A DNA stretch of 64,000 bases from Patescibacteria group bacterium. GTDB lineage: Bacteria > Patescibacteriota > Saccharimonadia > UBA4664 > SCTI01. Under the pieces are notes generated by a model that ran no database searches, had not been told where the DNA came from, and saw only the letters and a program-made list of their open reading frames with translations. Position numbers and translations under genes: made by a program. Positions 13,820-64,000 of the stretch are shown here, in pieces (position 1 is the first letter of the stretch; each line of letters begins with the position of its first letter). Location: positions 51,467-115,466 of the forward strand of contig SCTI01000001.1 of the NCBI GenBank assembly GCA_004297735.1, in the 5' to 3' direction.

Positions 13820-13906
13820 GCGGATGTGGTGGAATGGTAGACACGCCAGCTTGAGGGGCTGGTGGCCGTATAGGTCGTGGAGGTTCAAGTCCTCTCATCC
13901 GCACCA
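13820..13906 (+). tRNA. tRNA-Leu(GAG)
   Basis: Acceptor GCGGATG/CATCCGC. Anticodon arm CCAGC-TTGAGGG-GCTGG. Long variable arm. Encoded CCA. Confidence 0.9.
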
Positions 13907-14039
13907 GGAATTATTAAGATCGAACCAATGTGATTATGCTTGCAAAGCAGCTTAAAATGCCTCATAACTAATGCAACTTCTCGTGTCCGCAAATCTGCGT
14001 GCTGCTCAGTACGCAGCGAGCGACCACGAGGAGACGCAC

Positions 14040-14489
14040 ATGCCGCAGCACACTATCTTTCTTGCCAAGATCACACAGCTGAACCATCTCAGTAAGTCGG
14101 AGACGGTCGAGGTTGAGATCGATGCTCTCGATCCCGAGGCCGTGGAGTGGGACAACAACACGATTCACTTCACGCTCCATGCCCTGCAGTTCGCCGTCCC
14201 GGATGGACCCAAGCCTGAGAGCGTTGAATACGCCAACGGTCAGCTGCGTTGGGGTAGCTACAGCTGCTTCCCGTTCGCCCGCCACGATCCAGCTGAGGTC
14301 TACTTCACCGAACCGCTGATGTGGACGCTCAAGAAGGCCATGTGCGAAGGAACGGCTTCGTATGCTCAGGCCCGGGCCTGGATGAGGGAACATGGTCTCA
14401 CTGAGGCACTACAGGCCGGGGACCGCACTTTCTACGACCCTGCCAATCCTCGGTTCATCATTCTCCAGCCCGTGACCACCTTCGCGTAG
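14040..14489 (+). CDS. hypothetical protein on a GC-rich islet (149 aa)
   Basis: GAGGAG RBS 8 nt upstream of the ATG. Composition is clearly GC-richer than the flanks. Immediately downstream of tRNA-Leu(GAG). Confidence 0.5.
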   Translation: MPQHTIFLAKITQLNHLSKSETVEVEIDALDPEAVEWDNNTIHFTLHALQFAVPDGPKPESVEYANGQLRWGSYSCFPFARHDPAEVYFTEPLMWTLKKAMCEGTASYAQARAWMREHGLTEALQAGDRTFYDPANPRFIILQPVTTFA

Positions 14490-14508
14490 ATCACCCGTGT
14501 TGTACTTA

Positions 14509-14544
14509 GACCCCGTCTCGTCAAGAGGCGGGGTCCCTCGTTTT
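14509..14544 (+). terminator. intrinsic terminator (GACCCCGTCTC...GAGGCGGGGTC plus TTTT)
   Basis: 11-bp stem followed by a T-run. Confidence 0.6.
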
Positions 14545-14589
14545 GCTACTCGATTTTACCCCCATTTTATGGTACTCTTATCCATTGCC

Positions 14590-15483
14590 ATGAATATCAA
14601 ACATATTGCCATCATCTATAACCCCAAGAGCACCGGCGACTCGACCGCAGCCTCGCAGCAGCTTTACCACGACGTCCGCGAGCACCTGCCACATACCGGC
14701 GTGGAGCTAATGCCCACCAAATATCGTGGTCATGCCGCCGACTTAACCGAGATTTTGGGTCAAACCCGCACTGGCGTGGTGGTGGTTTCGGTTGGTGGAG
14801 ACGGAACTTATAACGAGGTGATCAACGGGGCGATGCGAGTGGCGCCAAGCCGCCGCCCTGTTTTGGTGCCATTTGCGGCTGGTAACGCCAACGATCACAG
14901 TCGCGAGCTACTAGGTGACGCCAAGGTGATGAGCCAGTTGATTGCCGGTGACACTCAGGTTATCGATTTGCTGCGCTTGTCGGTTCACAACCCTACCGGC
15001 GACGATGTTTTGCTGCACGCCCATTCTTACATCGGCTTTGGTGCCAGTGGGCGAGTGGCGCGCCTGTTGGATGAGCGCAACTTTGGGCCGATTAGCGAAA
15101 AGCTGATAGCGCTGGGTGAGATCTTGAGCCCGAGCGAGTTTAGCGCGGTGGTTAACGGGCACAGTAAAAAGCTGTATAGCATCGTGTGTAGCAACGTGTC
15201 GGTAATGGGCAAGTACTTAAAGGTAAGCCACCAAGCCGACTTGAGTGACGGCCACTTTGAGGTGGTTGAAACCGAGGCCCATTCACGTTTGGAGCTACTA
15301 AAAGAGGTTAGTCAGACCGCTACCGGTCAGCCGGCCGCAACCAAGAGAGTGCAAAGTTACAGCATGATGCTGATGGACGGAGTTCAGGCTCAGTTGGACG
15401 GCGAGCCAATCAGTTTGTCTAAGGCCTCAACGGTGTTTGTTACGGTTGAGCGCGAGGCGATTCGAACCTTAGCGGGTGAGTAA
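14590..15483 (+). CDS. diacylglycerol/lipid kinase catalytic-domain protein (YegS/BmrU family)
   Basis: IAIIYNPKSTGD...GGDGTYNEV DAGK_cat signature. Confidence 0.75.
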   Translation: MNIKHIAIIYNPKSTGDSTAASQQLYHDVREHLPHTGVELMPTKYRGHAADLTEILGQTRTGVVVVSVGGDGTYNEVINGAMRVAPSRRPVLVPFAAGNANDHSRELLGDAKVMSQLIAGDTQVIDLLRLSVHNPTGDDVLLHAHSYIGFGASGRVARLLDERNFGPISEKLIALGEILSPSEFSAVVNGHSKKLYSIVCSNVSVMGKYLKVSHQADLSDGHFEVVETEAHSRLELLKEVSQTATGQPAATKRVQSYSMMLMDGVQAQLDGEPISLSKASTVFVTVEREAIRTLAGE

Positions 15484-15543
15484 ATTACCAATTTTAGCCA
15501 CAAGTGTTTACACGTTAACTAATGCGTCTTATAGTGGTTATAT

Positions 15544-16302
15544 ATGTCAAAAGCATTAATAACAGTAGATGATGTCCGTAAGGATTATGATGATTTTCAG
15601 GCAGTCCGTGGCGTTAGCTTTGAGGTAAAGCGCGGCGAGGTGTTTGGTATTTTGGGGCCAAACGGCGCCGGCAAAACCACCACGCTGGAAATGATGGAGG
15701 GCCTACGCGAGATTTCGAGTGGTAGCGTAGTGCTAGATGAAATAGATGTTAAAAAGCACCCATACGATGTTCGCAAGATTATTGGCGTGCAGCTGCAGTC
15801 CTCATCCTTTTTTGAAAACAGTACGCTGGTTGAGCTGCTAACCGCTTTTGCCGCCATGTACAATCAGCGGGTTGAGCCAATCAAGTTGCTAGAGAGAGTC
15901 GGACTGGCCGAGAAAGCCAAGAGCTACCCGGAGCACCTGTCGGGTGGCCAGCGCCAACGCTTTAGTATCGCGGTGGCCTTGGTGCACGAACCGAAGGTGC
16001 TGTTTTTGGATGAGCCAACCACCGGTCTTGACCCGCAGGCTCGTCGCAACCTGTGGGAGCTGGTGCAGGAGATCCAAAAAGATGGCATTACCGTTATTTT
16101 GACCACTCACTATATGGAGGAGGCGCAGGTGCTGTGCGACCGCATTGCCATCATGGATGAGGGCAAGATAATTGCGCTAGATACACCGGACAAGCTAATA
16201 AAAGATCTGCTCAAGCGTGGCTTTAAGCCGCACGTCGAGGTGCAAAAGGCCACGCTTGAAGACGTCTTTATTGATTTAACCGGCAAGGATTTAAGGGATT
16301 AA
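15544..16302 (+). CDS. ABC transporter ATP-binding protein
   Basis: Walker A GPNGAGKTT, signature LSGGQRQR and Walker B LFLDEPT. Confidence 0.9.
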   Translation: MSKALITVDDVRKDYDDFQAVRGVSFEVKRGEVFGILGPNGAGKTTTLEMMEGLREISSGSVVLDEIDVKKHPYDVRKIIGVQLQSSSFFENSTLVELLTAFAAMYNQRVEPIKLLERVGLAEKAKSYPEHLSGGQRQRFSIAVALVHEPKVLFLDEPTTGLDPQARRNLWELVQEIQKDGITVILTTHYMEEAQVLCDRIAIMDEGKIIALDTPDKLIKDLLKRGFKPHVEVQKATLEDVFIDLTGKDLRD

Positions 16303-16303
16303 T

Positions 16304-17410
16304 ATGCGCGGGTACCTGTTTACAATCAGCCAGCTAACCAAGCTACTGGTGCGGCGCTACTTCCGTAGTCGCATAGCCATCTTCTTTTCGGTGTTCTTCC
16401 CGCTATTACTCTTGTTTGTGTTTGGCTTTTTATACAGCAACAACAAAGACGTGTCGTTTAAGGTGGCGCTATTTAATAACTCAAACACCGAGTTCGCTAA
16501 ACAGTTTGCTACCAACTTAGACCAAGTAAAGGCCTTGAGCATCCAAAAAGATCTCACCGATATGGACGCGGCTAAAGAAAAAATGAACCGCAGCGAAATC
16601 GATGCCATTATTGAGCTGCCACCCGAGTTTGGCCAGATCAACAGTCAGAACTTCCCCAGCGGACAGGTTAAGGTGCTGTACTCGCAGAACAGCCAGCAAG
16701 CTGGGCAGACCATTGGCTCGGTACTGCAGGGCATTCTGGATGGCGTAAACGTGCAGCTAACCAAGATACAGCCGCCGCTTACAGTTAAGGCGGAGTCTAC
16801 AGCCGACCAGGGCCTCACCGCCTTCGACTACGCCTTCCCTGGGCTGATTGGGTTCTCGTTGCTGGGTCTGGGCATCTTTGGTCCGCTCAACATGCTCCCG
16901 GCCGAAAAGAAGACCGGGGCGCTAACTCGTTTGCGGGTGACGCCGCTTCGCCCATCTCAGTTCATCATCTCGTACATGTTCTCATCGCTAGCAACCGGAG
17001 TGCTATCCATTACGGCCATGTTCTTGGTGGCGATTACCTTGTTTGAGTTCCACCTGGTCGGTAATCTGCTGGTCTTTGCTCTGTTCACCATCTTTGGCGC
17101 GATCATGATCTTTGGTATCGGTGTCGGCGTCGGCGGCTGGGCCAGTGACGAAAAGCAGGCGGCTCCACTAGGGAACATCATAACCTTCCCAATGATGTTC
17201 CTGTCCGGTATTTTCTTCCCCCGTTACCTAATGCCGGAGTGGCTACAGGGCGTAACGCAGTTTATTCCGCTAACTCCGGTGATTGATGGCATGCGCCTGA
17301 TCTTAACCGAGGGCAAAACCTTTATTGATCTTGGTCCCCAGTTGGGCTTGATGGCCATCTGGACGGTGGTGGTTTACACCATTGCCTTCCGCGTCTTCCG
17401 CTGGGATTGA
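16304..17410 (+). CDS. ABC-2 family transporter permease
   Basis: Translationally coupled to the ATPase. Six TM helices in the C-terminal half. Confidence 0.8.
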   Translation: MRGYLFTISQLTKLLVRRYFRSRIAIFFSVFFPLLLLFVFGFLYSNNKDVSFKVALFNNSNTEFAKQFATNLDQVKALSIQKDLTDMDAAKEKMNRSEIDAIIELPPEFGQINSQNFPSGQVKVLYSQNSQQAGQTIGSVLQGILDGVNVQLTKIQPPLTVKAESTADQGLTAFDYAFPGLIGFSLLGLGIFGPLNMLPAEKKTGALTRLRVTPLRPSQFIISYMFSSLATGVLSITAMFLVAITLFEFHLVGNLLVFALFTIFGAIMIFGIGVGVGGWASDEKQAAPLGNIITFPMMFLSGIFFPRYLMPEWLQGVTQFIPLTPVIDGMRLILTEGKTFIDLGPQLGLMAIWTVVVYTIAFRVFRWD

Positions 17411-17427
17411 AAACTCAGTAAAAGGCG

Positions 17428-17805
17428 CTACTTTACCATGATGGTGTCGTTGCCATCGCGGTTGGGTGCACCGGTAATCAACACCTCCAAGCCATCATCG
17501 CCGGCTGTAAGCGTGCGAACCACCTCTGGGCCAACTCGTACCGCATCAAGCGGTTTAAGCTCAACCACCTCATCATCCAGTAGCATCTGGCCGCTACCAC
17601 TCAGCACAATAAACACCTCTTCTTGGTATTCGTGTTTGTGCTTAAATGGGATGTTGCGATTAGGCAAAACCTTTTGATACCCCAGTCCCGACTCCGTTAG
17701 GTTGAGCGGCTTGGTAGCAAACCGCGCCTCCATGTCTTTATCGTGACCATACTTAGGTGACATGTTTTCGAGTTCGGCGAGATTGAGATGAGTGTAGTTA
17801 GACAT
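17428..17805 (-). CDS. cupin domain protein
   Basis: Cupin_2-like motifs H-x-H...E and G...P. Confidence 0.65.
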   Translation of the reverse strand: MSNYTHLNLAELENMSPKYGHDKDMEARFATKPLNLTESGLGYQKVLPNRNIPFKHKHEYQEEVFIVLSGSGQMLLDDEVVELKPLDAVRVGPEVVRTLTAGDDGLEVLITGAPNRDGNDTIMVK

Positions 17806-17873
17806 ATGACGATTTTAGCACGCGGTTCAAAACAGGCGTATAATAGAGGTATAGCTTAGCGAAAGGTCTTGCC

Positions 17874-18572
17874 ATGGCCGACCAGAACATTACAACCACC
17901 AAAACCAACACACTCGCAATTGCGGGCTTAATAACGGCCTTCTTTTTACCACTGGTCGGTCTGATCTGTTCAATAATTGGCCTGACGCAAATTAACAAAC
18001 GTAAAGAACGTGGTAGGGGTTTAGCGATCTCGGGCATTGTGGTGTCGATTTTGGTTGGTATAGCCCAGCTAATCACACTGGTTATCGTTGTGGCGGCGAT
18101 GAACTCCGGCGTAACGCTTACGACCTACCGCGACAACACCATTGGTTACAGCGTAAAGTACCCTGAAGGCTGGAATATTGCCCCGCAAAATGTAGAGGGC
18201 GTTCAGGGCATAATCATAAAAAAAGAGTATAAGCAGACCGGCAAATCTTACGGCCAGATTGAGGTTGGCTACTTTGCTCCGCCGGCCAACGGATACAGCC
18301 AAGACATCTTACAAGCCACCGCTGACGGAATTAAAAAGAGCAACAAAAACACCACCGTACTGTACGAAAACAAAAGTAGCGCGAACGGTTTAAGCACGCT
18401 AACATTGCTGACGACTTACGATGGCGAGACCGGAAAGATAAAGGCTAAGACCACAATTATGCTCAAAAAAGACAACGCCTTGTTTGTAATATCAACGCAG
18501 GCGCCAGAGGAAAACTGGGATAAGTACTCAGATAGCTTTGACGAGATTCATAACACCTTTACGCCAAATTAA
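17874..18572 (+). CDS. membrane protein with a DUF4190-like N-terminal TM pair and an extracytoplasmic domain
   Basis: Two TM helices, then a soluble domain. Confidence 0.55.
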   Translation: MADQNITTTKTNTLAIAGLITAFFLPLVGLICSIIGLTQINKRKERGRGLAISGIVVSILVGIAQLITLVIVVAAMNSGVTLTTYRDNTIGYSVKYPEGWNIAPQNVEGVQGIIIKKEYKQTGKSYGQIEVGYFAPPANGYSQDILQATADGIKKSNKNTTVLYENKSSANGLSTLTLLTTYDGETGKIKAKTTIMLKKDNALFVISTQAPEENWDKYSDSFDEIHNTFTPN

Positions 18573-18655
18573 ACTAAATAATAACTAAAGTGAGAACGGG
18601 GCGGTGCGTATAGTGCACCACCCCGTTTGACAGCGTCGGCGCTAGGCGCCTAGGC

Positions 18656-18976
18656 TTACGACCAGCGGTCGAGAGCCGACTGGGCGGCCTGCTGGACCCG
18701 TGGGTCCAAGTCCTCCTTGGCCATCTTGCGCAGCTCGACCTTGTATTCCGGTCGGCAGCGCGGGATGCGCTCCTTGATTCGGATGCAGGTGTTCAGGCGC
18801 AGAACGGAACTGCCATCGCGCAACCACTTCAGAGAAGTAATTGTGCCGGAAACCGCGTCGAAGCTGGAGTCCTCGAGCTCCACAATGCCCTCGAAGAGGT
18901 CATCGAGCTCCTTGTCGGTCAGCGGCTCCTGCCAGTCGTCGAACTTCCGAGCGAGCGCTTCGATACGATCGTTCAT
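18656..18976 (-). CDS. hypothetical protein on a GC-rich islet (106 aa)
   Basis: ORF. GC-rich composition. Divergent from the ORF at 19191. Confidence 0.5.
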   Translation of the reverse strand: MNDRIEALARKFDDWQEPLTDKELDDLFEGIVELEDSSFDAVSGTITSLKWLRDGSSVLRLNTCIRIKERIPRCRPEYKVELRKMAKEDLDPRVQQAAQSALDRWS

Positions 18977-19024
18977 GTCTCTCCCTGATGGGTCGAAGAT
19001 GGACTAAAGTCTTAAGCTGTCAAT

Positions 19025-21753: not shown

Positions 21754-22123
21754 CTGCTACCTCAAACCCTCCATATGCCATTTTCTTCATATCAACCGGC
21801 ATGGAAAAATCGTTTTGTTCTTTATATTTTTCGCTCATTTCTTCCATTGCCTTTTTGTTTACTTCGTCGCGGTGCTCCTTGGAGTTGAAAACAATAAAAG
21901 AGAACCATACATTTTCATCATCACCGGCGTCGGCCATGTCGGCAAAAGCGCGTGATTTTTCGTCACCCACCACTTGCTGCTTGAGGTCATCACCGCGACA
22001 CTCAAAATACTGAAGCGCACCATGCTTCATCCAAGCGTCACGCCCATCCTCGGCCATTTTCTCATACTCTGTTTCTTTGCCCTTAGGCACTACCAGTACA
22101 AAACCATCAACATATTTAGCCAT
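21743..22123 (-). CDS. DUF1428 family protein
   Basis: N-terminus YVDGFVLVVPKGKETEY...HGALQYFECRGDD matches the DUF1428 (YbaA-like) pattern. Confidence 0.65.
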   Translation of the reverse strand: MAKYVDGFVLVVPKGKETEYEKMAEDGRDAWMKHGALQYFECRGDDLKQQVVGDEKSRAFADMADAGDDENVWFSFIVFNSKEHRDEVNKKAMEEMSEKYKEQNDFSMPVDMKKMAYGGFEVAVEG

Positions 22124-22213
22124 CCCCACACTCCTTTTTTATAAAGTGACCTTCTTAAATAAGTTTAACATTTACTCCATATACTTTGCATATTGGAGGT
22201 AAACAAAAAGAGT

Positions 22214-22239
22214 ACCGAAGTGCTCGATAATTCCTGGTG
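22214..22239. repeat. left copy of a 26-bp imperfect direct repeat (ACCGAAG-N6-ATAATTCCTGGTG) bounding the AT-rich islet
   Basis: 21 of 26 nt identical to 23993-24018. The last 13 nt are identical to the tRNA-Gly 3' trailer. Confidence 0.6.
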
Positions 22240-22371
22240 TTAGCGACTCAGTAAGCGAGGCGTCATTGCCTTTGGCTGAAGTTTATTTTGAGTAGCTGTG
22301 TTCGTGGGCCAATTGTACGCCCGTGACAATCGTGTTGTGCATGGAGGTAAAAATTAACAAAATATTTCAGC

Positions 22372-23448
22372 TTATGCTTGTGCTGGTCCTCTCCATCGAT
22401 AAGCTCGTCTAAATCCAGCATCCTCAGCCTCCTTAACCGTCTTGGCATAGAATTCACCTCGTTTTGGGGTGATTTTTGCCTTGTCATATTGTTGGTCAAA
22501 CGGCAAGTGGTATATCTTGTCTCGCTTATTAGATATATTGCACTTGATGCAGGGGTAGTTCTTGTTCATTTTAAAGTTTTCTTTTAATTCAATTTTTAGC
22601 TCTTTTGCAAATCTTTTTGCTAAATCCGATAGTGTTGTCGATGTTGCGAAAACAGCTTTAACGGACCTGCCCTTATTTGCATCTCGATACTGGAAAACTG
22701 TGCCAAAAAACTGAAATATATGCTTTTCATAAATGACTTTGAATTTTGACCAATTCTTGCATTGTACGACTACTATTTCATTTTCCTTGCTTGCAATAAT
22801 ATCCCTGCCCAAATCTTCCAGCCCCTTGAATATGCCGACATATTCAACCTCATATCCTTTAGATTCGTAAGTATAGCCTACGTATCTTTCATACATCTTC
22901 CCGATTTGCCATTTGCTTTTTGGCCTGCTCCAATATCTATCAAGAGCCAATTGATTCCTCTCCGTGGTGCTTAGTTTTCTGTACTCCTTTTTTGAAACAT
23001 AATTAGTAACCTTATCTTCCAGCTCCTCCTCGCTGTAGTCCGCAAGAATCCTCCTATCTTCTTCGGATATATTGTCAACCTCTTCCTTGAGGTCGATAAG
23101 AAAAGGGGCAACACTTTCATAGTACGCAACAAGGTACTCAAGAATCTTTTTGTCTGAGATTGCCCTTCTCCTTTCCCGCGCCATATTTGCGACTACCTCG
23201 CTTGCCCGAACTGCGGGTACGTGCTTGTATTTTAAGAAGTCAACCAAATTTTGATCTTGAAGTTGCTGGTAATACTCAAATGCACTTGCTAAAGTAGGAA
23301 AACCAATCTGCCTCTCCTTTATAATTTGCTCTAAGTCTTTCTTTTGGTCTCGGATATGCTCTAAGTATTCTTGTGCTTGTTCGCGAACTTCATGCCATTC
23401 ACTTATTGTCTGCTGCAATTCTGCCCGTACATCTTCGTAGTACCCCAT
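22372..23448 (-). CDS. coiled-coil protein with a C-terminal Mrr-like PD-(D/E)xK restriction-endonuclease domain
   Basis: The N-terminal 170 aa or so are heptad-rich. C-terminal GYEVEYVGIFKGLEDLGRDIIASKENEIVVVQCKNWSK is an Mrr_cat-type D...D-x-K/QCK core. AT-rich codon usage. Confidence 0.7.
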   Translation of the reverse strand: MGYYEDVRAELQQTISEWHEVREQAQEYLEHIRDQKKDLEQIIKERQIGFPTLASAFEYYQQLQDQNLVDFLKYKHVPAVRASEVVANMARERRRAISDKKILEYLVAYYESVAPFLIDLKEEVDNISEEDRRILADYSEEELEDKVTNYVSKKEYRKLSTTERNQLALDRYWSRPKSKWQIGKMYERYVGYTYESKGYEVEYVGIFKGLEDLGRDIIASKENEIVVVQCKNWSKFKVIYEKHIFQFFGTVFQYRDANKGRSVKAVFATSTTLSDLAKRFAKELKIELKENFKMNKNYPCIKCNISNKRDKIYHLPFDQQYDKAKITPKRGEFYAKTVKEAEDAGFRRAYRWRGPAQA

Positions 23449-23903
23449 TATTTATATGCCTTTTCGAAATCTTCAATAAATAAGTCATTATAATAGGCTT
23501 TAATGTCCTTTTTAGCAGTAACGTTTACCCATTCCTTGTCTCTGGTGCATGAGCAATTAGGGTATCTGTTGCAACCCAAGAATTCACCATACATCCCGTC
23601 CCTTTTAACCATATAGCCTGTCTTACATTCAGGACAACTCCTATTTATCCTATGTATGCTTTTAGCAATTTTGGCTTCCTCGTATTCGTACGAATTTACA
23701 TATTCGTCACGCATTGATTCAATCTCTTTTTTAAGCTCCGCTAGAGATGTTGATGAAATGAAATTAGTTTTCAATAACTCTCTAGTAAGAAGTGACTTCT
23801 TTTTTTCATGGCGCCTTTTAGCATACTCGTCGAATAAGTCTATTAGCCAGCCTATTATTGTTAGGATTAGGAAAATACCTATAAGTATGATAAAAGGCTC
23901 CAT
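23448..23903 (-). CDS. membrane-anchored protein with a C-terminal topoisomerase-type C4 zinc ribbon
   Basis: Start at MEPFIIL with GGAGG 7 nt upstream. One TM helix. CPECKTGYMVKRDGMYGEFLGCNRYPNC is a zf-C4_Topoisom pattern. The stop overlaps the start of the downstream nuclease gene (TAATG). Confidence 0.65.
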   Translation of the reverse strand: MEPFIILIGIFLILTIIGWLIDLFDEYAKRRHEKKKSLLTRELLKTNFISSTSLAELKKEIESMRDEYVNSYEYEEAKIAKSIHRINRSCPECKTGYMVKRDGMYGEFLGCNRYPNCSCTRDKEWVNVTAKKDIKAYYNDLFIEDFEKAYK

Positions 23904-23992
23904 ACCGCTTCCTCCAAGATAAATATACCACTGTATCACGCTTTAAAGTTGGTTTTTAAGCAAGATTAACCGGTGGAATACTAGATGTAATC

Positions 23993-24018
23993 ACCGAAGC
24001 GTCAAATAATTCCTGGTG
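23993..24018. repeat. right copy of the 26-bp direct repeat, overlapping the 3' end of tRNA-Gly
   Basis: See 22214-22239. Confidence 0.6.
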
Positions 24019-24089
24019 CGGGTACAGGGACTCTAACCCTGGGCCTCTTCCTTGGCAAGGAAGCGCTCTAACAGCTGAGCTACACCCGC
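24014..24089 (-). tRNA. tRNA-Gly(GCC)
   Basis: Revcomp GCGGGTG TA GCTC AGCTGTTA GAGC G CTTCC TTGCCAA GGAAG AGGCC CAGGG TTAGAGT CCCTG TACCCGC A CCA. Confidence 0.85.
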
Positions 24090-25388: not shown

Positions 25389-25462
25389 GGCACCTTGGCG
25401 GAGTGGTTACGCAGAGGTCTGCAAAACCTTTTACACCGGTTCAATTCCGGTAGGTGCCTCCA
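25389..25462 (+). tRNA. tRNA-Cys(GCA)
   Basis: Acceptor GGCACCT/AGGTGCC. Anticodon loop CTGCAAA. Discriminator U73. Encoded CCA. Confidence 0.85.
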
Positions 25463-25487
25463 TTAATTATATTGTCCGGGAGAGTGG

Positions 25488-25563
25488 TGGAATGGTATAC
25501 ACGACGGACTTAAAATCCGTTGCCTTTACGGGCTTGAGGGTTCGAGTCCCTCCTCTCCCACCA
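25488..25563 (+). tRNA. tRNA-Leu(TAA)
   Basis: Acceptor GGGAGAG/CTCTCCC. Anticodon arm ACGGA-CTTAAAA-TCCGT. Long variable arm. Encoded CCA. Confidence 0.9.
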
Positions 25564-25598
25564 GGAATTATTCATTAATTGCGATTGCAGGCTGCATA

Positions 25599-25653
25599 TA
25601 TTAAGGTAGAGCTACTTCTAACATTCTAGGTGAGAGAAAGTTGGTGGAGCACA
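25599..25653 (+). repeat. copy 1 of a perfect 55-bp direct repeat (TATTAAGGTAGAGCTACTTCTAACATTCTAGGTGAGAGAAAGTTGGTGGAGCACA) ending at the start codon of ORF 25653
   Basis: Identical to 27485-27539. Contains a putative promoter and RBS (GGTGGAG). Confidence 0.9.
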
Positions 25654-26210
25654 TGAGCTACCGGCTCACGGAAGATCAGTGGCGCATTGTGCTGCTGATT
25701 TGGGATCGCAAAAAGAAGGGTCGGCATCCAGCGCAACCCTTTGACTTGGCCGCCCAGCTTGGCCTGAGCCGAATGAGCGTGTTACGCGATCTTGGATATC
25801 TGGTAAGTCTCGAAATCGTAAAACAAGATGTCGGCTATCAGTGTCACCCAGCAAAGCGTTGGCCTTCCGAAGAGATGTTGTGCCTCATGGAGGCTTGGCG
25901 AGTTGGAGTGAGCATTGACGAACAGGGCGAGGCCGACGTGGTCGCGGTGTATCTCACACAGCAAAATCAACTTCGGTTTCAAAATGGGCAAAAAATGTTT
26001 CGAGGATTTGTCGCTCAAGCTATAGGCGAAACTAAACGGGCTGAAAATCCACTCGAACATCTTGTCCAGCAGGCGGCCATTCAGCCATCATGCCCGGCTG
26101 ACATTGTTCGTCGAGCAGCTTACCAGGCGGCGATTGAGTACTGGCAGATTAGGCCGCTGCCTAATGGCACGGTTTTTGACAGCGCGGAAGGTGGAGCACA
26201 TGGCGTTTAA
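25653..26210 (+). CDS. winged-helix DNA-binding protein (hypothetical, GC-rich islet)
   Basis: FDLAAQLGLSRMSVLRDLGYLVSLEIV HTH-like segment. Start ATG immediately after the 55-bp repeat. Confidence 0.5.
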   Translation: MSYRLTEDQWRIVLLIWDRKKKGRHPAQPFDLAAQLGLSRMSVLRDLGYLVSLEIVKQDVGYQCHPAKRWPSEEMLCLMEAWRVGVSIDEQGEADVVAVYLTQQNQLRFQNGQKMFRGFVAQAIGETKRAENPLEHLVQQAAIQPSCPADIVRRAAYQAAIEYWQIRPLPNGTVFDSAEGGAHGV

Positions 26211-26793
26211 GCTGAATAAGGGTTACGAAGCAATCCTGGTAGCGATAGATCAGCAGCGCCGACCACTAAGCTTAAAAGAGCTTGAACTGCTGACAAACTT
26301 AAAGCCTCAGTCTCTCAGGGCGTACTGCAAGAAGCTGGTTAGAGAGAAGTACCTGGTGTATAACCACGCAACCCTTCGCTACTCAGAGGGTGAGCTCTTT
26401 CCACCCGTTATCAAGATGGAAAAAATAACGAAGCGGTTGGAGGCTTGGCGGGAGCAGGACCCCAGCTTCCATCCCGTAGCCTTTGAGCTGATGTTCAAGC
26501 ACGGTGGTGGATACGACTACGACTTGCGTCAGGATTTTCTGCGGCGACTGCGCGAACTGCTGCGTCCAGCGGAGGTGGCCGGATATGAGCCTGATTCGCT
26601 AGGCGAACCGCTCGTGCCGGCAGGCTGCAGTCCAGAGACCGAGCTGGTTTACCGGCGCGCTCACGAAGTGGTAAGCGATTGGCTGAGTCAGCGAATTGAC
26701 GTGGGTTCCGGGTTAGATCATGACCCCGGGCCGGAAGACGCGCCGCTGCGTGACGACGAGCCATGGTTCCCGGTTCCGCTGGAAGAAGAGTGA
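26200..26793 (+). CDS. winged-helix (MarR-like) hypothetical protein with an acidic C-terminal tail
   Basis: Start context GGTGGAGCACATG shared with the repeat genes. LSLKELELLTNLKPQSLRAYCKKLVREKYLV. Confidence 0.45.
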   Translation: MAFKLNKGYEAILVAIDQQRRPLSLKELELLTNLKPQSLRAYCKKLVREKYLVYNHATLRYSEGELFPPVIKMEKITKRLEAWREQDPSFHPVAFELMFKHGGGYDYDLRQDFLRRLRELLRPAEVAGYEPDSLGEPLVPAGCSPETELVYRRAHEVVSDWLSQRIDVGSGLDHDPGPEDAPLRDDEPWFPVPLEEE

Positions 26794-26887
26794 CGAAAGG
26801 CGGCCTCGCATAGTCTGTGAGGCCGCCAGGATTGCAATTATTTTATTTGATGGTACTTTATAAAGCATCAGTATCAACCTTCTACAG

Positions 26888-27202
26888 ATGGGTAAGAAGA
26901 TGATTCGACGACTGATTGACAACGTGTTGGTGCATGTCTTTTGCACCGCGGCGGTCGAGGTTTGCTTGGAGGCTTACGACGGGCGCGCACACCCCGACTA
27001 CTTGGGCCCGCTGCAGGCCAGGCTGCTGCGCCCGATGACCCGCTTGAATCTGCTTGTCTACGAGATGAACTGCAGCAACGAGCGCATGGAGTGGTCCCAG
27101 GCGGAGTTCCCGTACGGCAACGAGGAGCTGCGAAGGCGCCTCTTTGATTCCAGCTTCTGGGCTAAGGATCTGGCGTTTCGGGTTCGCTTGGCGTTCGCAT
27201 GA
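26888..27202 (+). CDS. hypothetical protein (104 aa)
   Basis: ORF in the GC-rich islet. Confidence 0.4.
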   Translation: MGKKMIRRLIDNVLVHVFCTAAVEVCLEAYDGRAHPDYLGPLQARLLRPMTRLNLLVYEMNCSNERMEWSQAEFPYGNEELRRRLFDSSFWAKDLAFRVRLAFA

Positions 27203-27417
27203 GTGTGCCGGAGTTGGCCGAAGGACATCAGCTCATCCTTAATGAGCTTAAAGAAGCGGGCAGCTGCGGCCGTCGGCTTACCGAGCTCGTTAAGTTGTTC
27301 GACGGTGATTTTGAGACGCTTGTTCGGTGCCGAGACCAGCTTATTGAATGGGGGCTGGTAAGGCGAGAAGGTGACTGCTCCACATCGAGCTTCGTACTGT
27401 CGGATAACGGCAAGTGA
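27199..27417 (+). CDS. small winged-helix-like protein (72 aa)
   Basis: Start overlaps the upstream stop (ATGA). LTELVKLFDGDFETLVRCRDQLIEWGLV. Confidence 0.4.
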   Translation: MSVPELAEGHQLILNELKEAGSCGRRLTELVKLFDGDFETLVRCRDQLIEWGLVRREGDCSTSSFVLSDNGK

Positions 27418-27484
27418 CCCCGGCGATTGGGCCGGGGTCGTTTTACGGAATTATATGGTTTTTGTTGTTTGCATCCAGTAGTTG

Positions 27485-27539
27485 TATTAAGGTAGAGCTA
27501 CTTCTAACATTCTAGGTGAGAGAAAGTTGGTGGAGCACA
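27485..27539 (+). repeat. copy 2 of the perfect 55-bp direct repeat, ending at the start codon of ORF 27540
   Basis: Identical to 25599-25653. Confidence 0.9.
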
Positions 27540-28370
27540 ATGCAGGAACGACTTTGGCTCAAGGTTACGCATCTGCGTCTCTTCGACTGGCTGCTGCATG
27601 ACTACGGGGGCGGGGCGACCCACATCCTGTTCACGCTCAGCCTGGGAGACTTCCAGACCAGGAAATTCCATCTGACGCCGTCCGGAGTCGGGGTGGACGC
27701 CTTTGGCACTCCGAACACCGGTGGTTCAGGCGATCACATCGGTGCTGTGCCGGCGGACTACAAGCTCGCGGGTGTGCCGGTGCCAGATCTCATTCTCGGC
27801 GACCTTCTTGTCGAGGCGATCTGGAGACACTTCAGGCAGCCCCAGAATTGGGGTCAGCTACGGGAGTACTACAACGGTGGCCAGACGCCTTACGAGGTCA
27901 TCATCGCGCCAGAGCAGTGGGGCGGCCAGGCGTTGTGGATTCCGGTCGACTTCGTCGAGATCTTCAACCTGTTGCCGGCTTCGACCGGCTTGTATGCCGA
28001 TATTCGAATGGGTCATCACCTGCTCTTCCGGGAGCAGCTGCTTGACCGCCGCTACAAGTCGACGGTGATGGAACGGCCGCATCCGGGCGACTGGCAGACG
28101 ATCGATCGGCTGGCCCGCAGCGAAGAGGAGCTTTTTGAGGAGGCTCTTTTGCGCCGAACCTTCACGAATCCTCGAGTCAATGAGCTGATCGAGGCGGCGA
28201 CACAGCACGCCTGGGACAGTGGTATGTGGCGGGAATACAACCGTCTACGGTTCGGTCACAGCAAGGGTCGTGAGCACTACCTCTACGGTGTGCCGGGTGT
28301 CGATCCTGGTTCGGTGGCCCCGGGTCTGGTCATGAACCTCAGTCCGCCCCCGTCGGTCGTGGCGGCGTAG
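27540..28370 (+). CDS. hypothetical protein (276 aa, GC-rich islet)
   Basis: ORF 27516-28370. The ATG at 27540 follows the duplicated leader. I recognise no family. Confidence 0.5.
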   Translation: MQERLWLKVTHLRLFDWLLHDYGGGATHILFTLSLGDFQTRKFHLTPSGVGVDAFGTPNTGGSGDHIGAVPADYKLAGVPVPDLILGDLLVEAIWRHFRQPQNWGQLREYYNGGQTPYEVIIAPEQWGGQALWIPVDFVEIFNLLPASTGLYADIRMGHHLLFREQLLDRRYKSTVMERPHPGDWQTIDRLARSEEELFEEALLRRTFTNPRVNELIEAATQHAWDSGMWREYNRLRFGHSKGREHYLYGVPGVDPGSVAPGLVMNLSPPPSVVAA

Positions 28371-28482
28371 TTCAATCTTTCGGGCGGCTCTGGCTTAACG
28401 GTCAGGGCCGCCGAGTTCGCAATTATCTCTCCCAAAAACCAATCAAAAATGCTACAATAGAGCCAAAATAAAGGGTAGCCGA

Positions 28483-58393: not shown

Positions 58394-58446
58394 CTGAGGG
58401 GCGGTTGCCCTTTTAACCCAAGAAGATCAAAGTCAACCGCTATGCT

Positions 58447-59643: not shown

Positions 59644-59650
59644 TTTTTCT

Positions 59651-60055
59651 TTGGGGGTTAAAAATCGTACCGGTACGATTATTATTCCGCCTGGGGTTTT
59701 TGTAGATGTTCATGAGAAAATGACGGCTGATTTTCTTGCCACCAAGTTAAGTTATGACGTGACATTCCTTGTGCCGAATAGGAGAAGGGGAGCAAAAACT
59801 CCAGATATTGAAATGAATAATCTACGCTGGGAAATTAAAAGCCCGTCTGGTAAAAGTTCTCGCACAATAGAAAATAATTTACGTACTGCTCTCCGGCAGT
59901 CCCCAAATATCATACTTGATGTGCGCCGTATGGACGGTCGAATTCCAGGTAAAAAGTTATTGGATGAAGTTGAGCGCCAATTTAATCACGCAGCGGCAAT
60001 AAAGCGTATAATTGTCATTCTTCGGCAAGATGTACACATTGAATTTAAGCGTTAA
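59651..60055 (+). CDS. small hypothetical protein with a PD-(D/E)xK-like motif (TPD...EIK)
   Basis: Motif spacing P-D-x8-E-I-K typical of the restriction-endonuclease fold. The TTG start is uncertain. Confidence 0.45.
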   Translation: MGVKNRTGTIIIPPGVFVDVHEKMTADFLATKLSYDVTFLVPNRRRGAKTPDIEMNNLRWEIKSPSGKSSRTIENNLRTALRQSPNIILDVRRMDGRIPGKKLLDEVERQFNHAAAIKRIIVILRQDVHIEFKR

Positions 60056-60170
60056 ATTTGCTATCTTAATTATAGAAACGCGGGACGCCGACACTGGATA
60101 GAGTCGGCCAGCCCGCTTTCTTCCTTTATGGGGGGCGAGAAAGCTATTATTTTTAGGGTACAATAGGGTG

Positions 60171-62207
60171 ATGAATGTGGATGTCAGAGTTGAAACGCTC
60201 AAGGGCGTGGGGGCGGCGATGGCGAGCAAGTTGGAGCGCCTGGGGATTGTGACGGTTGCTGATCTGCTCAATCATTATCCGCGTAGATATGATGATTTCT
60301 CGGAAATTATTTCAATTCGCCAAATGAAGCCGGGCGCGGTGACCTTTAGGGGTAAGGTAGTTAACATCGCCTCGCGCCGGGCGCGTGGTCGCAAGTTGAC
60401 CATTACCGAGGCGGTGATAGCCGATGGAACCGGCACGGTTAAGGCAATTTGGTTTAATAATCCTTATTTGGTTAAGCAGTATCCAGTTGAAACCTCGGTA
60501 ATGGTGTCGGGTAATCTAGAGTTTCGTAACAACGATTTGGCTTTGCGGGCTCCGGCAATCGAGCTGGACAGCGATGATTCGATGCATACCGGCCGGATCG
60601 TGGCGGTGTATCCTGAGACTCACGGGCTGACCAGTAAGCAGCTGCGCACCGTTATTCGGCCGGTATTGGAGCGCCTTGAGGGGTTACCGGAGACGCTGCC
60701 AAAGGAGATAATTAAAGAGGCGAGTTTGGTATCGCGGCAGCAAGCCTTGAGTGAGTTGCATCTGCCAACCAGTCGCCAGGCGCTAGATAAGGCGCGTCAC
60801 CGACTGGCTTTTGAGGAGCTGTTCTTTATTATTGCGGCTTCGTTACGACTTAAAAGCCAGCTGCAGGATGAATCGGCGCCGGAGATCGATTTTAACGTAG
60901 AGGTGGCGCAGGAGTTTGTTAAGTCTCTGCCGTTTGCGATTACCAATGCCCAGCGCCAGTCGGCCTGGCAGATTTTAAAAGATATGGCGCAGCCTCACCC
61001 CATGAATCGATTGCTCGAAGGTGATGTTGGTAGCGGTAAAACGGTGGTGGCCTTTATGGCGGCAACCATGGCGGTACGGGCCGGGTATCAAGCGGCGTTA
61101 ATGGTGCCAACCGATGTGTTGGCGCGTCAGCATTTTAAGAATGCAACTAGCTTGCTGGATGATCTTGGGGTGCCGGTGGAGCTGGTGTTGAGCAAGCAGC
61201 CGGCTGCGGATAAGGCGCCGGTGCTGGCGCGAATTAAGGCCGGTCAGCCGGGTTTAATTATTGGCACGCATGCACTACTTGGGGAGTCGGTTGAGTTTAG
61301 CAAGCTCGGTCTGGTAATTATTGATGAGCAACATCGCTTTGGTGTTAATCAACGCCAGCAGCTTAAAACCAAAAGTCGATTCTTCCCGCATTTGCTGAGC
61401 ATGACAGCTACTCCAATTCCGCGTAGCTTAGCGCTAACCGTTTATGGCGACCTGGATGTATCGATTATTGATGAGCTCCCGGCCGGTCGCAAGCCAATTG
61501 CTACCAAGGTAGTTAGTGGACGCGACAAGGAAGTGGCGTATGGTTTTATTGATGGCCAGATCAAGCTTGGCCGTCAGGTGTTTGTGGTTTGCCCGTTAAT
61601 TGATGATTCTGACAGCCTGGATGCCAAAAGCGTTAATACCGAAGTGGAGCGGCTGCGGTCGGGCCTGTTCCGCCATCGTCGGATTGAGGCGCTCCACGCC
61701 AGGCTGACTCCGCCAGAACGCCAAAAGATTATGGAGCGGTTTGTGGCTGGCGATATTGATATCTTGGTCTCAACCACTGTGGTCGAGGTGGGGGTGGACA
61801 TTCCCAACGCTACCGTCATGTTGGTTGAGGGGGCGGAGCGATTTGGTCTGGCAACTTTGCACCAGCTGCGCGGCCGAGTTGGTCGAAGCCAGCACGATTC
61901 GTACTGTTTTTTGGCAAGCGACAGCAGTGCCCCTGGCGCTAGAGAGCGGCTTGAGGCGATGGAGCGGACCCAAGATGGTTTTCGGCTGTCGCAAATCGAC
62001 CTGGAGCTGCGCGGACCCGGCCAGATTTATGGCAAGCGCCAGCATGGACTACTTGATCTGCGCCTAGCCAATCTAACCGATACCAAGTTGGTGAGCGAGG
62101 TGCGCGCAGCCGCCCGCCGCTTTGTTGATGATCCGGCGATCATGGTACAATATCCACAGATAACCGAGCGCATTCAGCGGCTTCAGGCGATTACCACTCT
62201 CGATTAA
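60171..62207 (+). CDS. recG: ATP-dependent DNA helicase RecG
   Basis: Wedge and OB N-terminus. Walker A GDVGSGKT. DEQHRFG. TACAAT 6 nt before the ATG, so leaderless. Confidence 0.9.
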   Translation: MNVDVRVETLKGVGAAMASKLERLGIVTVADLLNHYPRRYDDFSEIISIRQMKPGAVTFRGKVVNIASRRARGRKLTITEAVIADGTGTVKAIWFNNPYLVKQYPVETSVMVSGNLEFRNNDLALRAPAIELDSDDSMHTGRIVAVYPETHGLTSKQLRTVIRPVLERLEGLPETLPKEIIKEASLVSRQQALSELHLPTSRQALDKARHRLAFEELFFIIAASLRLKSQLQDESAPEIDFNVEVAQEFVKSLPFAITNAQRQSAWQILKDMAQPHPMNRLLEGDVGSGKTVVAFMAATMAVRAGYQAALMVPTDVLARQHFKNATSLLDDLGVPVELVLSKQPAADKAPVLARIKAGQPGLIIGTHALLGESVEFSKLGLVIIDEQHRFGVNQRQQLKTKSRFFPHLLSMTATPIPRSLALTVYGDLDVSIIDELPAGRKPIATKVVSGRDKEVAYGFIDGQIKLGRQVFVVCPLIDDSDSLDAKSVNTEVERLRSGLFRHRRIEALHARLTPPERQKIMERFVAGDIDILVSTTVVEVGVDIPNATVMLVEGAERFGLATLHQLRGRVGRSQHDSYCFLASDSSAPGARERLEAMERTQDGFRLSQIDLELRGPGQIYGKRQHGLLDLRLANLTDTKLVSEVRAAARRFVDDPAIMVQYPQITERIQRLQAITTLD

Positions 62208-62227
62208 CATTAAAGAATGATTAAATT

Positions 62228-63061
62228 ATGTATTCTGGCTTTGTAAGCTCAAAGCGAACCGTTTCGGCCCTTGGTGTGCACCAGCGATTTGATACGGTGG
62301 CCTATCGTTTAACTCAGTCTTATTTTCACCCCCAAACCTTTCCGAATCTGGCCCAAATACTGCATTTTGAGGGCATTAACGGTCCAGACGGCATGAAGGT
62401 TAAGTCGCCCGGTAAGGGGGAGGTGGGTCACCTTTATGATCCATTAACCGAGCGCGGTGCCATACCTGATTTGATCGAGCAGCATTACCAGGGGCTGGTG
62501 CTAGCACTGCAAAAAAACAATCAGGTGCGGGCGGCGTTTGAGGCGGCCTGGTTGGCTCACTACGTTTGTGACGGCTTAACACCAGCTCATCACTTTCCGC
62601 TGGACGAAGAGCTGGCTAAGCACCGGTTAACTAAAACCGACAAGAACCGCTACAAGGTGCGCCAGGCCGGTGAGCCGGCGCGTGAAACGCTTAAAAAGGG
62701 GTGGGCTGTCTGGGGTGGTAAAGGTCTTTTGACCACTCACGTCAACTTTGAGATGGGCGTAATGGCGGCTTTGGTCGGGCAAAAAATTAAGGTACAGCTG
62801 GATGCTAGTAAGCTGGCTCATGCTCGCCAGGTTGGACCGGTTGAGTTCTTTAAGCAAGAGGCGCGCGAGATCGCCAACTTGCAGATGTATGAGCGCTTTT
62901 ATAAGCAGGGATGGAGTATGAGCCTGGGGCGCGAGGTTAAGTCGATTTTGGCGCCGGTTAGCGTCCAGGCTATCGCGATTATTTGGCTGCTTGCTTATTT
63001 AGAGAGCGGCCAACAGCTAGCCGAAGCGGCGCATCGGTCTAAAGCGGTTGCCGAACTGTGA
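62228..63061 (+). CDS. hypothetical protein (possible metal-dependent hydrolase; His/Asp-rich AHYVCDGLTPAHHFP)
   Basis: ORF. No family identified with confidence. Confidence 0.5.
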   Translation: MYSGFVSSKRTVSALGVHQRFDTVAYRLTQSYFHPQTFPNLAQILHFEGINGPDGMKVKSPGKGEVGHLYDPLTERGAIPDLIEQHYQGLVLALQKNNQVRAAFEAAWLAHYVCDGLTPAHHFPLDEELAKHRLTKTDKNRYKVRQAGEPARETLKKGWAVWGGKGLLTTHVNFEMGVMAALVGQKIKVQLDASKLAHARQVGPVEFFKQEAREIANLQMYERFYKQGWSMSLGREVKSILAPVSVQAIAIIWLLAYLESGQQLAEAAHRSKAVAEL

Positions 63062-63585
63062 GGATTGTTTCTGGATCACTTGGTGGCAGAACCTTGACTA
63101 TGCCGTCAACGCGCAATACTCGGCCAATGACGCATAAGGTGCGCGCGGCACTTTTTGATATGCTTGGTCCGATTGATGGCTTGCGCGTGCTCGATACCTA
63201 TGCCGGCAGTGGCGCACTTGGCTTTGAGGCGCTGAGTCGTGGTGCAGCACACGTTGATGCGGTTGAATTGGCAGGGCCAGCGCTCAAGGCGATTCAAACT
63301 AATATTGAGGCGCTCGGAGTGAAAAGTCAGTACAAGGTCTTTCCAGTGCGCGTGGAGTCATGGCTTGAAAGCTTCAAATCTATTTATGACCTTATCTTCG
63401 CAATGCCTCCATATAGTTTTATTGACAAGGAAATTTTAGCTAAAATTGGGGAGCGTCTAAAAAAAGATTCAATTATGGTTATTGAGTTTTCGCGTCACTC
63501 TCGGCCGATGGAGCTAAAAGGGCTGAACCTTATTAAGCAAAAAGACTATGGAGATCAAATTTTAGCAGTATACCGTAAGCTTTAG
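63058..63585 (+). CDS. rsmD: 16S rRNA (guanine966-N2)-methyltransferase RsmD
   Basis: SAM-binding VLDTYAGSGALGFEALSRGA. DPPY-like MPPY motif. Confidence 0.85.
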   Translation: MRIVSGSLGGRTLTMPSTRNTRPMTHKVRAALFDMLGPIDGLRVLDTYAGSGALGFEALSRGAAHVDAVELAGPALKAIQTNIEALGVKSQYKVFPVRVESWLESFKSIYDLIFAMPPYSFIDKEILAKIGERLKKDSIMVIEFSRHSRPMELKGLNLIKQKDYGDQILAVYRKL

Positions 63586-63648
63586 CTTGCAACCGGTATT
63601 AAAAATTGCTAATCTAGCTCTAGTTAAGTTTGGCGAGACTTGCTGCCA

Positions 63649-63670
63649 GGTGGCCATCGGGCCACCTTTT
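63649..63670 (+). terminator. intrinsic terminator GGTGGCC-ATCG-GGCCACC plus TTTT
   Basis: Read directly. Confidence 0.6.
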
Positions 63671-63675
63671 GCGTC

Positions 63676-63747
63676 TGGTGGAGCTATCGGGAATCGAACC
63701 CGACAGTCAAGTTTGGCGAGACTCAATGCCGCACCAGCGGTAGCCCC
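63676..63747 (-). other. tRNA-like element lacking a canonical anticodon arm (possible pseudo-tRNA or att remnant)
   Basis: Revcomp has acceptor GGGGCTA/TAGCTCC (one G-U pair), T-arm TCGGG-TTCGATT-CCCGA and encoded CCA. No 5-bp/7-nt anticodon stem-loop can be drawn. Confidence 0.3.
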
Positions 63748-63819
63748 CTGCCACTTAACGTGCTACACCAGACAAAACCGAGCTTAACAAACAAATATTA
63801 ACGAATTCTAAATCCACTT

Positions 63820-63905
63820 GGGCGAGTGGTGAAATGGTAGACACGCTAGCCTTAGGAGCTAGTGGGGGAAACCCCGTGGAGGTTCAAGTCCTCTCTCGCC
63901 CACCA
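63820..63905 (+). tRNA. tRNA-Leu(TAG)
   Basis: Acceptor GGGCGAG/CTCGCCC. Anticodon arm CTAGC-CTTAGGA-GCTAG. Long variable arm. Encoded CCA. Confidence 0.9.
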
Positions 63906-64000
63906 GGAATTATTGTAAAAACGCTAATTTGTGTTATAATTAAGTCATTGATACGCAGTCAAGCACGCAAATCGACTAGGGGGATGATGTCAGAGCAAGT

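Follow-up and report, generated by a model that had tools for sequence, protein, structure and literature searches.

Why should several tRNA genes of one bacterial contig run, past their encoded CCA ends, into the same short sequence, and why should one more copy of that sequence lie where there is no tRNA? This question is raised by a 64,000-nt stretch (hereafter the window) of contig SCTI01000001.1 (assembly GCA_004297735.1, positions 51,467 to 115,466) from an uncultured Patescibacteria group bacterium. The initial annotation had proposed that the shared motif is either a conserved 3' processing or termination signal, or the core of an attachment site repeatedly used by integrating elements. 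The comparisons described here argue for a combination of the two, namely a conserved tRNA trailer that doubles as the duplicated junction of small integrase-less gene blocks, which would be recombined by an enzyme encoded elsewhere. We assign this reading a probability of roughly 0.7.

Eight tRNA genes were called in the window by both ARAGORN and Rfam, at the positions given previously, and the trailer survey covers these eight, all inside the 64-kb window of a genome of roughly 1 Mb. An exact-match search found five copies of CACCAGGAATTAT, four at tRNA 3' ends and one tRNA-less (Table 1), in agreement with the identity over 13-14 nt reported earlier; the window sequences likewise confirmed that tRNA-Leu(CAG), -Phe, -Val and -Cys are not followed by the motif. 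Another tRNA lies 8-15 nt downstream of tRNA-Phe and tRNA-Cys, and mscL follows close behind tRNA-Val. The motif is present in four of the eight tRNAs, or in four of the six without another tRNA within 15 nt. When two mismatches at most were tolerated, six matches to CACCAGGAATTAT were obtained against 1.38 expected, a number that none of 100 shuffles reached. The 13-14-mer is composite: CACCA, comprising the last acceptor-stem base, the discriminator A and CCA, all encoded by the tRNA gene, is followed by a trailer of 8-9 nt, GGAATTAT(T/C). Identity beyond the gene amounts to 9 nt, GGAATTATT, after Leu(GAG), Gly(GCC), Leu(TAA) and Leu(TAG), and the tRNA-less (orphan) copy reads GGAATTATC. The trailer GGAATTAT alone has six copies in the window against 1.9 expected. 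The sixth (27447-27454, plus strand), absent from the initial annotation, lies where a second insertion ends.

The relatives compared are related to the source genome at the genus level, with protein identities of about 80-90% for the nearest ones. Core proteins are ~80-94% identical to those of the window in locus L294, 76-94% in L291 and about 38-84% in L010; L006 has a MscL protein 85% identical to that of the window and an identical tRNA-Gly. The best MscL match among the representative genome contigs searched was 76%. Many of the related contigs retrieved carry a Saccharibacteria label, and the host genus within Patescibacteria is probably Saccharibacteria-like. Logan contigs (SRR8426595) encoding window-identical proteins break at tRNA-Leu genes.

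The trailer was found in these relatives at tRNAs without any insertion. In L291, Leu(TAG) is followed by GGAATTATC and then by tig, clpP, rpoB and rpoC, and in L010 Leu(GAG) is followed by GGAATAATT, a form with one change, the homology with the window ending exactly past the 9-mer. Further insertion-free sites carrying the trailer are Leu(TAA) and Gly of L294 and Gly of L006. More distant relatives have GAATTAT or GCAATTAT within 10 nt past Gly and Leu(TAA), and in three of them GCAATTAT or GCAATAAT stands directly past the CCA of tRNA-Val, with mscL next in L010 and an extra open reading frame (ORF) before mscL in the other two. In the other Patescibacteria loci that were examined, no tRNA flank has the motif. 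Since the trailer occurs at insertion-free sites, it predates the insertions, and the four tRNA-adjacent copies are not in themselves insertion marks. On comparison of these sequences, GGAATTAT is best described as a clade-specific trailer that exists irrespective of insertions. The proposal of a conserved 3' signal is thereby borne out in the form of a trailer conserved in genus relatives without insertions. The initial annotation had also held that a motif following most tRNAs genome-wide irrespective of insertions would be a generic trailer; in the relatives the motif does occur irrespective of insertions, and still the orphan copy stands as an attachment-type duplicate.

The fixed position directly past CCA suggests a role at the RNA level. 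RNase E has a cleavage preference for R-N|W-U-U, and GA|AUU in the trailer fits it. Directly 3' of CCA, GGAAUUAU(U) provides the A/U-rich segment expected of an RNase E-type 3'-processing site. In E. coli, pre-tRNAs undergo endonucleolytic cleavage by RNase E 1-3 nt past the encoded CCA, and these sites similarly have a single-stranded A/U-rich segment right past it (PMC2190699), although E. coli trailers share no single fixed 9-mer. By this analogy, the trailer is probably an A/U-rich 3'-end maturation site right past the encoded CCA, and the fixed 9 nt are a candidate 3'-maturation signal. To our knowledge, there are no studies of RNA processing in this lineage. Other roles of the motif were considered and rejected: pairing of leader and trailer (AATT with AATT) shows inconsistent spacing by eye, AGGA within the motif has by eye no ORF behind it that it could serve as a Shine-Dalgarno sequence, and the occurrence of GGAATTAT upstream of the mscL start in L007 is probably ribosome-binding-site context only.

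The orphan copy bounds a 1.77-kb insertion (islet 1) behind tRNA-Gly(GCC), the last gene of a Phe-Gly pair. The GC content of islet 1 is 35-44%, against about 52% elsewhere, the AT-rich stretch extending from ~22,100 to 24,000. The earlier statement that the orphan lies exactly at the boundary of the AT-rich islet stands as regards the islet, which is real; the compositional edge is sharp at the tRNA-Gly side and more gradual at the orphan. The tRNA gene is intact at the junction (67.9 bits), and the insertion begins past its CCA and trailer. The tRNA-proximal and orphan copies are similar over 26 nt at 81%, with 13 nt exact, 5 nt of which belong to the tRNA. In minus-strand order, 132 nt of non-coding sequence separate the last islet gene from the orphan CACCAGGAATTAT, which is followed by a hairpin and then by a DUF1428 gene. 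This hairpin is weak (-6.5 kcal/mol, z-score -0.9; form GAGCAC..GTACTC-T5). The tRNA end of islet 1 contains GACGCTTCGGTG, half of a hairpin similar to the tRNA-Gly terminator in relatives. In L006, which is without islet 1, tRNA-Gly reads CCA-GGAATTAT-C and continues into a hairpin and a T-run; the same arrangement was found in L294, also without islet 1. Because relatives show the tRNA-Gly trailer and terminator in place without islet 1, the orphan and its hairpin are, on sequence comparison, most plausibly the tRNA-Gly trailer/terminator module displaced by the insertion. L010 was rejected as an exact empty site for islet 1, as according to our own reading of the sequence an rsgA-like gene lies there between the tRNA-Gly terminator and DUF1428.

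The second insertion (islet 2) lies behind tRNA-Leu(TAA) and is bounded by repeats of ~90 nt each, 1.9 kb apart, both of which start with GGAATTAT. The 55-nt exact part of the left repeat spans the -10 region, the 5' untranslated region (5'UTR) and the start of the following ORF. The islet ends with a strong terminator hairpin (27415-27445), and the right repeat runs into a native gene with its ATG at 27540. In L294, Leu(TAA)-GGAATTATTCATT continues via the same 5'UTR into the orthologue of the 27540 gene (80% identical), which represents an empty site. The region had been described as a GC-rich islet: its GC composition shows no difference from that of the native neighbour gene, but the comparison with L294 demonstrates a real insertion. 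Gene duplication behind the 55-nt repeat was rejected, as the ORFs following the two copies are unrelated. The 5'UTR contained in these repeats (42 nt, ACTTCTAACATTCTAGGTGAGAGAAAGTTGGTGGAGCAC...) occurs at 25612-25653 and 27498-27539 in the window and at about 9959-10000 in L294. The window and L294 agree in it at every position (100%), while the protein downstream is only 80% identical, and in the window a duplicate stands ahead of the first islet 2 gene; this UTR is possibly a regulatory leader. The tRNA-Cys/Leu(TAA) pair (25389-25563 in the window, 8440-8598 in L002) is inverted relative to Val-mscL and ligA in L002-L005, in contrast to its orientation in the window, L294 and L010.

Use of the same junction was found to be repeated in relatives. 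Within 4.4 kb behind tRNA-Gly of L294, CACCAGGAATTATT occurs at 7722 (the tRNA), 6323 and 3313, with a degenerate copy at 7047. All copies are intergenic and in tRNA orientation, and they separate small gene blocks; at 6323 the repeated sequence extends over the terminator and 16 more bases, giving a 48-nt repeat. In L002, a 4.9-kb copper-resistance block (CsoR-like protein, DUF305, P-type ATPase) stands behind tRNA-Gly and ends with GCACCA-TTAG-GGAATTAT and a terminator. Over 10.4 kb, L002 and L005 share 99.99% identity, and from 2 nt past the Gly CCA they are unrelated; L005 was rejected as an empty site of the L002 island, as it diverges fully at this point and has no match to the far flank of L002. 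In every displaced copy the left edge is sharp at (G)CACCA, whereas the similarity ends on the right after anything from 8 to about 50 nt. The proposal that the motif is an attachment core, of which the orphan would be an attL/attR-type duplicate, thus gains support from the orphan hairpin, the AT-rich islet with its promoter-like site and the tandem copies of L294.

Several observations concern these junctions and their surroundings. A block of ~20 nt, CTAATTT(C/G)AGGGG(T/C)GTAAAC, recurs by the tRNA-Gly junctions of L006, L005, L002 and L294; it lies ~50 nt past the terminator in the first three (in L002, past the displaced copy) and about 20 nt ahead of the displaced copies in L294. In L296 (10575-20531), which lies on the contig of L294, tig is replaced behind a Leu(TAG) without trailer by a defence-like island of at least 10 kb that encodes N6/N4 DNA methylase, GmrSD_N and HEPN_Swt1 proteins. 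In the window, a gene starting with ATGATGTCAGAGCAAG (63985-64000) begins ~80 nt past Leu(TAG) and is unlike the tig start of L291; judging from this sequence, there may be an insertion behind Leu(TAG) of the window as well.

The anatomy of these sites suggests a simple scheme. Circular cassettes carrying the core would recombine with the tRNA-end/trailer site, and each insertion would regenerate the tRNA-proximal copy and push the earlier copy outward, which could give rise to a tandem array such as that of L294. The empty tRNA-Gly site would then read ...CCCGCACCAGGAATTATCGAGCAC... and the junction of the excised circle ...GTCGCTAACACCAGGAATTATTTGACGC... (also given as ...CGCTAACACCAGGAATTATTTGACGC...). 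As no islet encodes a recombinase, the one that catalyses insertion would most likely have its gene elsewhere in the genome; moreover, the same tRNA-Gly junction bounds unrelated cargo in L002 and L294, and the machinery is therefore unlikely to be cassette-encoded. A maturation role would account for the trailer being kept at insertion-free sites as well as for its stability as an insertion target. Among the window ORFs that were scanned, and likewise in the L294, L296 and L002 islets, no recombinase, transposase or Cas1-type domain was detected. In the viral collections scanned, no element combining an integrase with this core was found: none of the at least 120 matches to CACCAGGAATTATT listed lies at a tRNA end, a 14-mer being too short to be informative in scans of whole collections, and searches with the tRNA-Gly end plus motif, the Leu T-arm plus motif, the motif plus UUCG hairpin and the sequence downstream of Leu(TAG) returned no match or one. 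A single viral match (18-nt pattern, 19 nt identical) appears to lie inside a phage coding region and was judged to be due to chance. A dif-like Xer site, as used by Xer-exploiting elements (IMEX), has 28 bp, with two 11-bp arms of partial dyad symmetry and a 6-bp centre; in a comparison by eye, made without a formal search, nothing conserved was seen past the 14-mer and no dyad symmetry was noticed. A broader version of the scheme, in which one unlinked recombinase serves a genus-wide cassette-capture system and inserts, stacks and exchanges integrase-less cassettes at the core CACCAGGAATTAT(T) behind at least four tRNAs, is a speculative extension that we regard as unlikely. If true, it would be a capture system for defence, metal resistance and toxin cassettes, with an integron-like function based on tRNA 3' ends in an episymbiont genome of roughly 1 Mb.

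Several points weigh against the preferred reading. No recombinase was found in the ORFs scanned, so that site-specific recombination is deduced from anatomy alone; the processing role of the trailer comes by analogy with E. coli RNase E; the trailer frequency is taken from eight tRNAs of this genome; and the empty sites are those of genus-level relatives, none of them of the window's own species. The tRNA leader in L291 is by eye also about 80% conserved, which means that 8/9 identity of the trailer is by itself no proof of selection. The island behind Leu(TAG) in L296 has its junction at CCA without the motif. In islet 2 the repeat is without CACCA and is exact over 55 nt, which suits homologous (Campbell-type) recombination equally well. 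Homologous recombination consequently remains a rival explanation, above all for islet 2: the trailer would be an RNA maturation or termination signal only, and modules of trailer plus terminator would be duplicated or swapped after DNA uptake with no dedicated recombinase. The preservation of the trailer at insertion-free sites agrees with this, as do the failure to find a recombinase in the window ORFs scanned or the relatives' islets and the frequent inclusion of the terminator (48 nt in L294) or the 55-nt UTR in the repeats, which makes them long enough. Nevertheless, the orphans of four independent insertions start sharply at (G)CACCA and include no more than 5-6 nt of the tRNA, RecA-type recombination would need more than the 13 identical nt of the window to be efficient, and replacement by double crossover would leave no duplicate; as a general explanation we consider it rather unlikely. 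The same grade is given to the opposite simplification, a motif without host function that is an attachment core kept identical at four tRNAs by repeated integration and excision. All four motif-bearing tRNAs adjoin regions that are variable among relatives, tandem copies exist in L294, and the tRNA-adjacent copies of the window have GGAATTATT where the displaced copy and two insertion-free relative sites have GGAATTATC. However, the insertion-free native Leu(TAA) of L294 also reads GGAATTATT, trailer variants stand directly past the CCA of tRNA-Val in the three more distant relatives mentioned above, and no integrase element with this core was present in the collections scanned.

The remaining alternatives are less probable still. 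It is improbable that GGAATTAT is an A/T-rich upstream element of the promoters of downstream genes abutting the tRNAs. A -35-like hexamer does lie 0-5 nt past the motif at Gly, and by eye also at Leu(TAG), Leu(TAA), the 27447 copy, L291 and L294, but in L006, L294 and at the window orphan the motif is followed by a terminator hairpin and not by a promoter; the fixed position past CCA would be unexplained, and the promoter readings are consensus matches only. Casposons generate 14-15 bp duplications at tRNA 3' ends and resemble the sites described here in the place of insertion, the duplication of about 14 bp and the formation of tandem arrays. A target-site duplication by a transposon or a casposon-like element would thus account for a repeat of 13-14 nt at a tRNA 3' end. 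We nonetheless hold it to be highly improbable, as no terminal inverted repeats were found in four islets, no transposase, Cas1 or polymerase gene was found, and insertions at one site have repeats of anything between 6 and about 50 nt, instead of a fixed length, that are imperfect past the core. The lowest likelihood, close to dismissal, is given to chance or common ancestry, i.e. duplication of tRNA-Leu paralogues together with their flanks. Three of the four carriers are tRNA-Leu genes, and Leu(CAG) and Leu(TAG) are 88% identical; yet the trailer is present at tRNA-Gly and missing from Leu(CAG), the nearest paralogue of Leu(TAG), orphan and tandem copies exist, and the shuffled sequences did not reach the observed count.

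A conserved trailer used as a duplicated junction can be compared with several known systems. The tRNA/tmRNA islands of tyrosine integrases (Islander, PMC4383910) similarly insert at tRNA 3' ends, leave the tRNA intact, carry a displaced duplicate of the target, have a foreign base composition (true of islet 1, not of islet 2) and vary in occupancy among relatives. Islet 1 in particular combines insertion at a tRNA 3' end, a direct repeat, unoccupied relatives and foreign GC, but contains no internal integrase. The islets also differ from such islands in that only 5-6 nt of tRNA are duplicated, the repeat being mostly trailer, in their size of 1.4-4.9 kb, in the lack of an integrase in all of them and in the presence of the same core behind four different tRNAs. 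With the tycheposons of Prochlorococcus, older elements are displaced outward as new ones integrate at the same tRNA (bioRxiv 10.1101/2020.12.28.424599). These elements are likewise parted by partial tRNA copies and occur in streamlined genomes with few classical mobile elements; they have a tyrosine recombinase, replication genes and attachment sites of about 40 nt inside the tRNA, whereas no such hallmark genes were found here and the repeat lies mostly outside the tRNA. Integrons and CALIN, the latter being cassette arrays that lack an integrase and are moved in trans (PMC11389934), share with our loci tandem blocks of one to few genes, a short recurring site by a hairpin and the absence of an internal recombinase. 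In contrast to them, the anchor is a tRNA end and not attI, and at least one of the cassettes brings a promoter-like site of its own. No GTTRRRY core or attC-type imperfect palindrome was present at the junctions, which have an ordinary terminator-type hairpin instead, and no IntI integrase was found within the 64-kb window. Accretion of tRNA-anchored islands is already known as a kind of feature; unusual here are the repeat consisting mostly of trailer, the single core for four tRNAs, the very small integrase-less cassettes and the host lineage.

Bacteria of the candidate phyla radiation have tiny genomes with few recognised mobile elements, and their acquisition of defence and resistance genes is poorly understood. 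The locus would offer a concrete route of acquisition, with the trailer as a reusable docking point for blocks of one to six genes, and CACCAGGAATTAT away from a tRNA could serve as a tag for cassette boundaries in related metagenome-assembled genomes.

Table 1. Coordinates of the motif copies, tRNA genes, insertions and accompanying features in the window.
Feature	Position	Strand	Basis or remark
CACCAGGAATTAT copies	13902-13914; 25559-25571; 63901-63913	+	Exact match
CACCAGGAATTAT copies	24006-24018; 22227-22239	-	Exact match
tRNA-Leu(GAG)	13820..13906	+	ARAGORN; Rfam tRNA 55.4 bits
Trailer GGAATTATT after Leu(GAG)	13907..13915	+	Homology with L010 spans the tRNA and these 9 nt, then ends
Hairpin GAGCACTTCGGTACTC + TTTTT behind orphan	22205..22225	-	Resembles L010 tRNA-Gly terminator GAGCACctcaGTGCTC-T7
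Orphan CACCAGGAATTAT, attR-like junction	22227..22239	-	Exact match; repeat family D16
Islet 1, whole (1.77 kb)	22240..24004	-	Between tRNA-Gly and displaced motif-plus-hairpin copy
Islet 1 gene 2, 358-aa Mrr_cat (PD-(D/E)xK) restriction-endonuclease-like	22372..23448	-	Pfam PF04471, E 4e-11
Islet 1 gene 1, topoisomerase-I-type C4 zinc ribbon	23448..23903	-	Pfam PF01396, E 6e-11
Promoter-like TTGACG-16-TAGTAT	23978..24005	-	Begins right behind motif; overlaps half-hairpin GACGCTTCGGTG
tRNA-proximal copy CACCA+GGAATTAT+T, attL-like junction	24005..24018	-	Exact match; repeat family D16
tRNA-Gly(GCC), last of Phe-Gly pair	24014..24089	-	ARAGORN, Rfam
tRNA-Leu(TAA), with tRNA-Cys upstream	25478..25563	+	ARAGORN, Rfam
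Islet 2 left repeat: GGAATTATT, ~27 nt, 55-nt exact repeat (25599-25653)	25564..25653	+	Repeat family D5
Islet 2, ORFs 25653-26210, 26062-26793, 26888-27202	25654..27446	+	All ORFs of unknown function; absent in L294
One-mismatch variant GCAATTAT	26834..26841	+	6 nt past strong hairpin, gap between ORF-B and ORF-C; weak evidence
Islet 2 right repeat	27447..27539	+	Sixth GGAATTAT (27447-27454) after terminator; 55-nt copy 27485-27539
One-mismatch variant GCAATTAT	28419..28426	+	Past hairpin, gap between native gene and lemA; kept in L294; weak evidence
tRNA-Leu(TAG)	63820..63905	+	ARAGORN, Rfam
Trailer GGAATTATT after Leu(TAG)	63906..63914	+	L291 counterpart GGAATTATC, then tig

The two genes of islet 1 form a recurrent unit. 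The zinc-ribbon protein has 151 aa (its gene is called in L001), with an N-terminal hydrophobic segment that was read from the translation and not predicted by a tool, and the Mrr_cat protein has 374 relatives in metagenome contigs. As a conserved module of two genes, the pair, described as transmembrane (TM) plus Top1-type zinc ribbon and Mrr_cat nuclease-like, occurs in at least 60 of the 80 metagenome loci L210-L289. In L229 the module is flanked by a 26-nt repeat of the 3' end of tRNA-Ser(GGA), and in L212 by a 20-nt exact, non-tRNA repeat. Homologues of the Mrr-like protein with 42% identity are encoded on Hymenobacter plasmids and are annotated only as restriction endonuclease. PADLOC gave no match for the cassette, PHROGs and NCBIfam gave only weak domain matches, and neither a sequence relative in the PDB nor a phage relative was found. 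From these sequence contexts the pair looks mobile, behaving as compact cargo, and it could represent a defence or selfish module not yet described.

A further variable position, which is not adjacent to a tRNA, was noted between tyrS and recG, where a window ORF of 134 aa (59651-60055) encodes a CdiA C-terminal toxin domain. The two genes directly adjoin each other in L291 and L296 and are separated by a different, 158-aa ORF in L293; the window ORF looks like another small variable insertion.

Finally, a candidate structured RNA with a tRNA-like T-arm and the 3' end ...AGCUCCACCA was detected on the minus strand between rsmD and tRNA-Leu(TAG) (~63,655-63,768). It is absent in L296 and was not called by ARAGORN, and its match to the Rfam tmRNA model (26 bits, under the gathering threshold) is confined to the tRNA-like domain, with 34 nt in place of the 328 of the model. 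RNAalifold analysis of three genomes yielded a 12-bp closing stem with two compensatory pairs, and the candidate RNA is about 95% identical across genomes in which the neighbouring protein is 66-76% identical.

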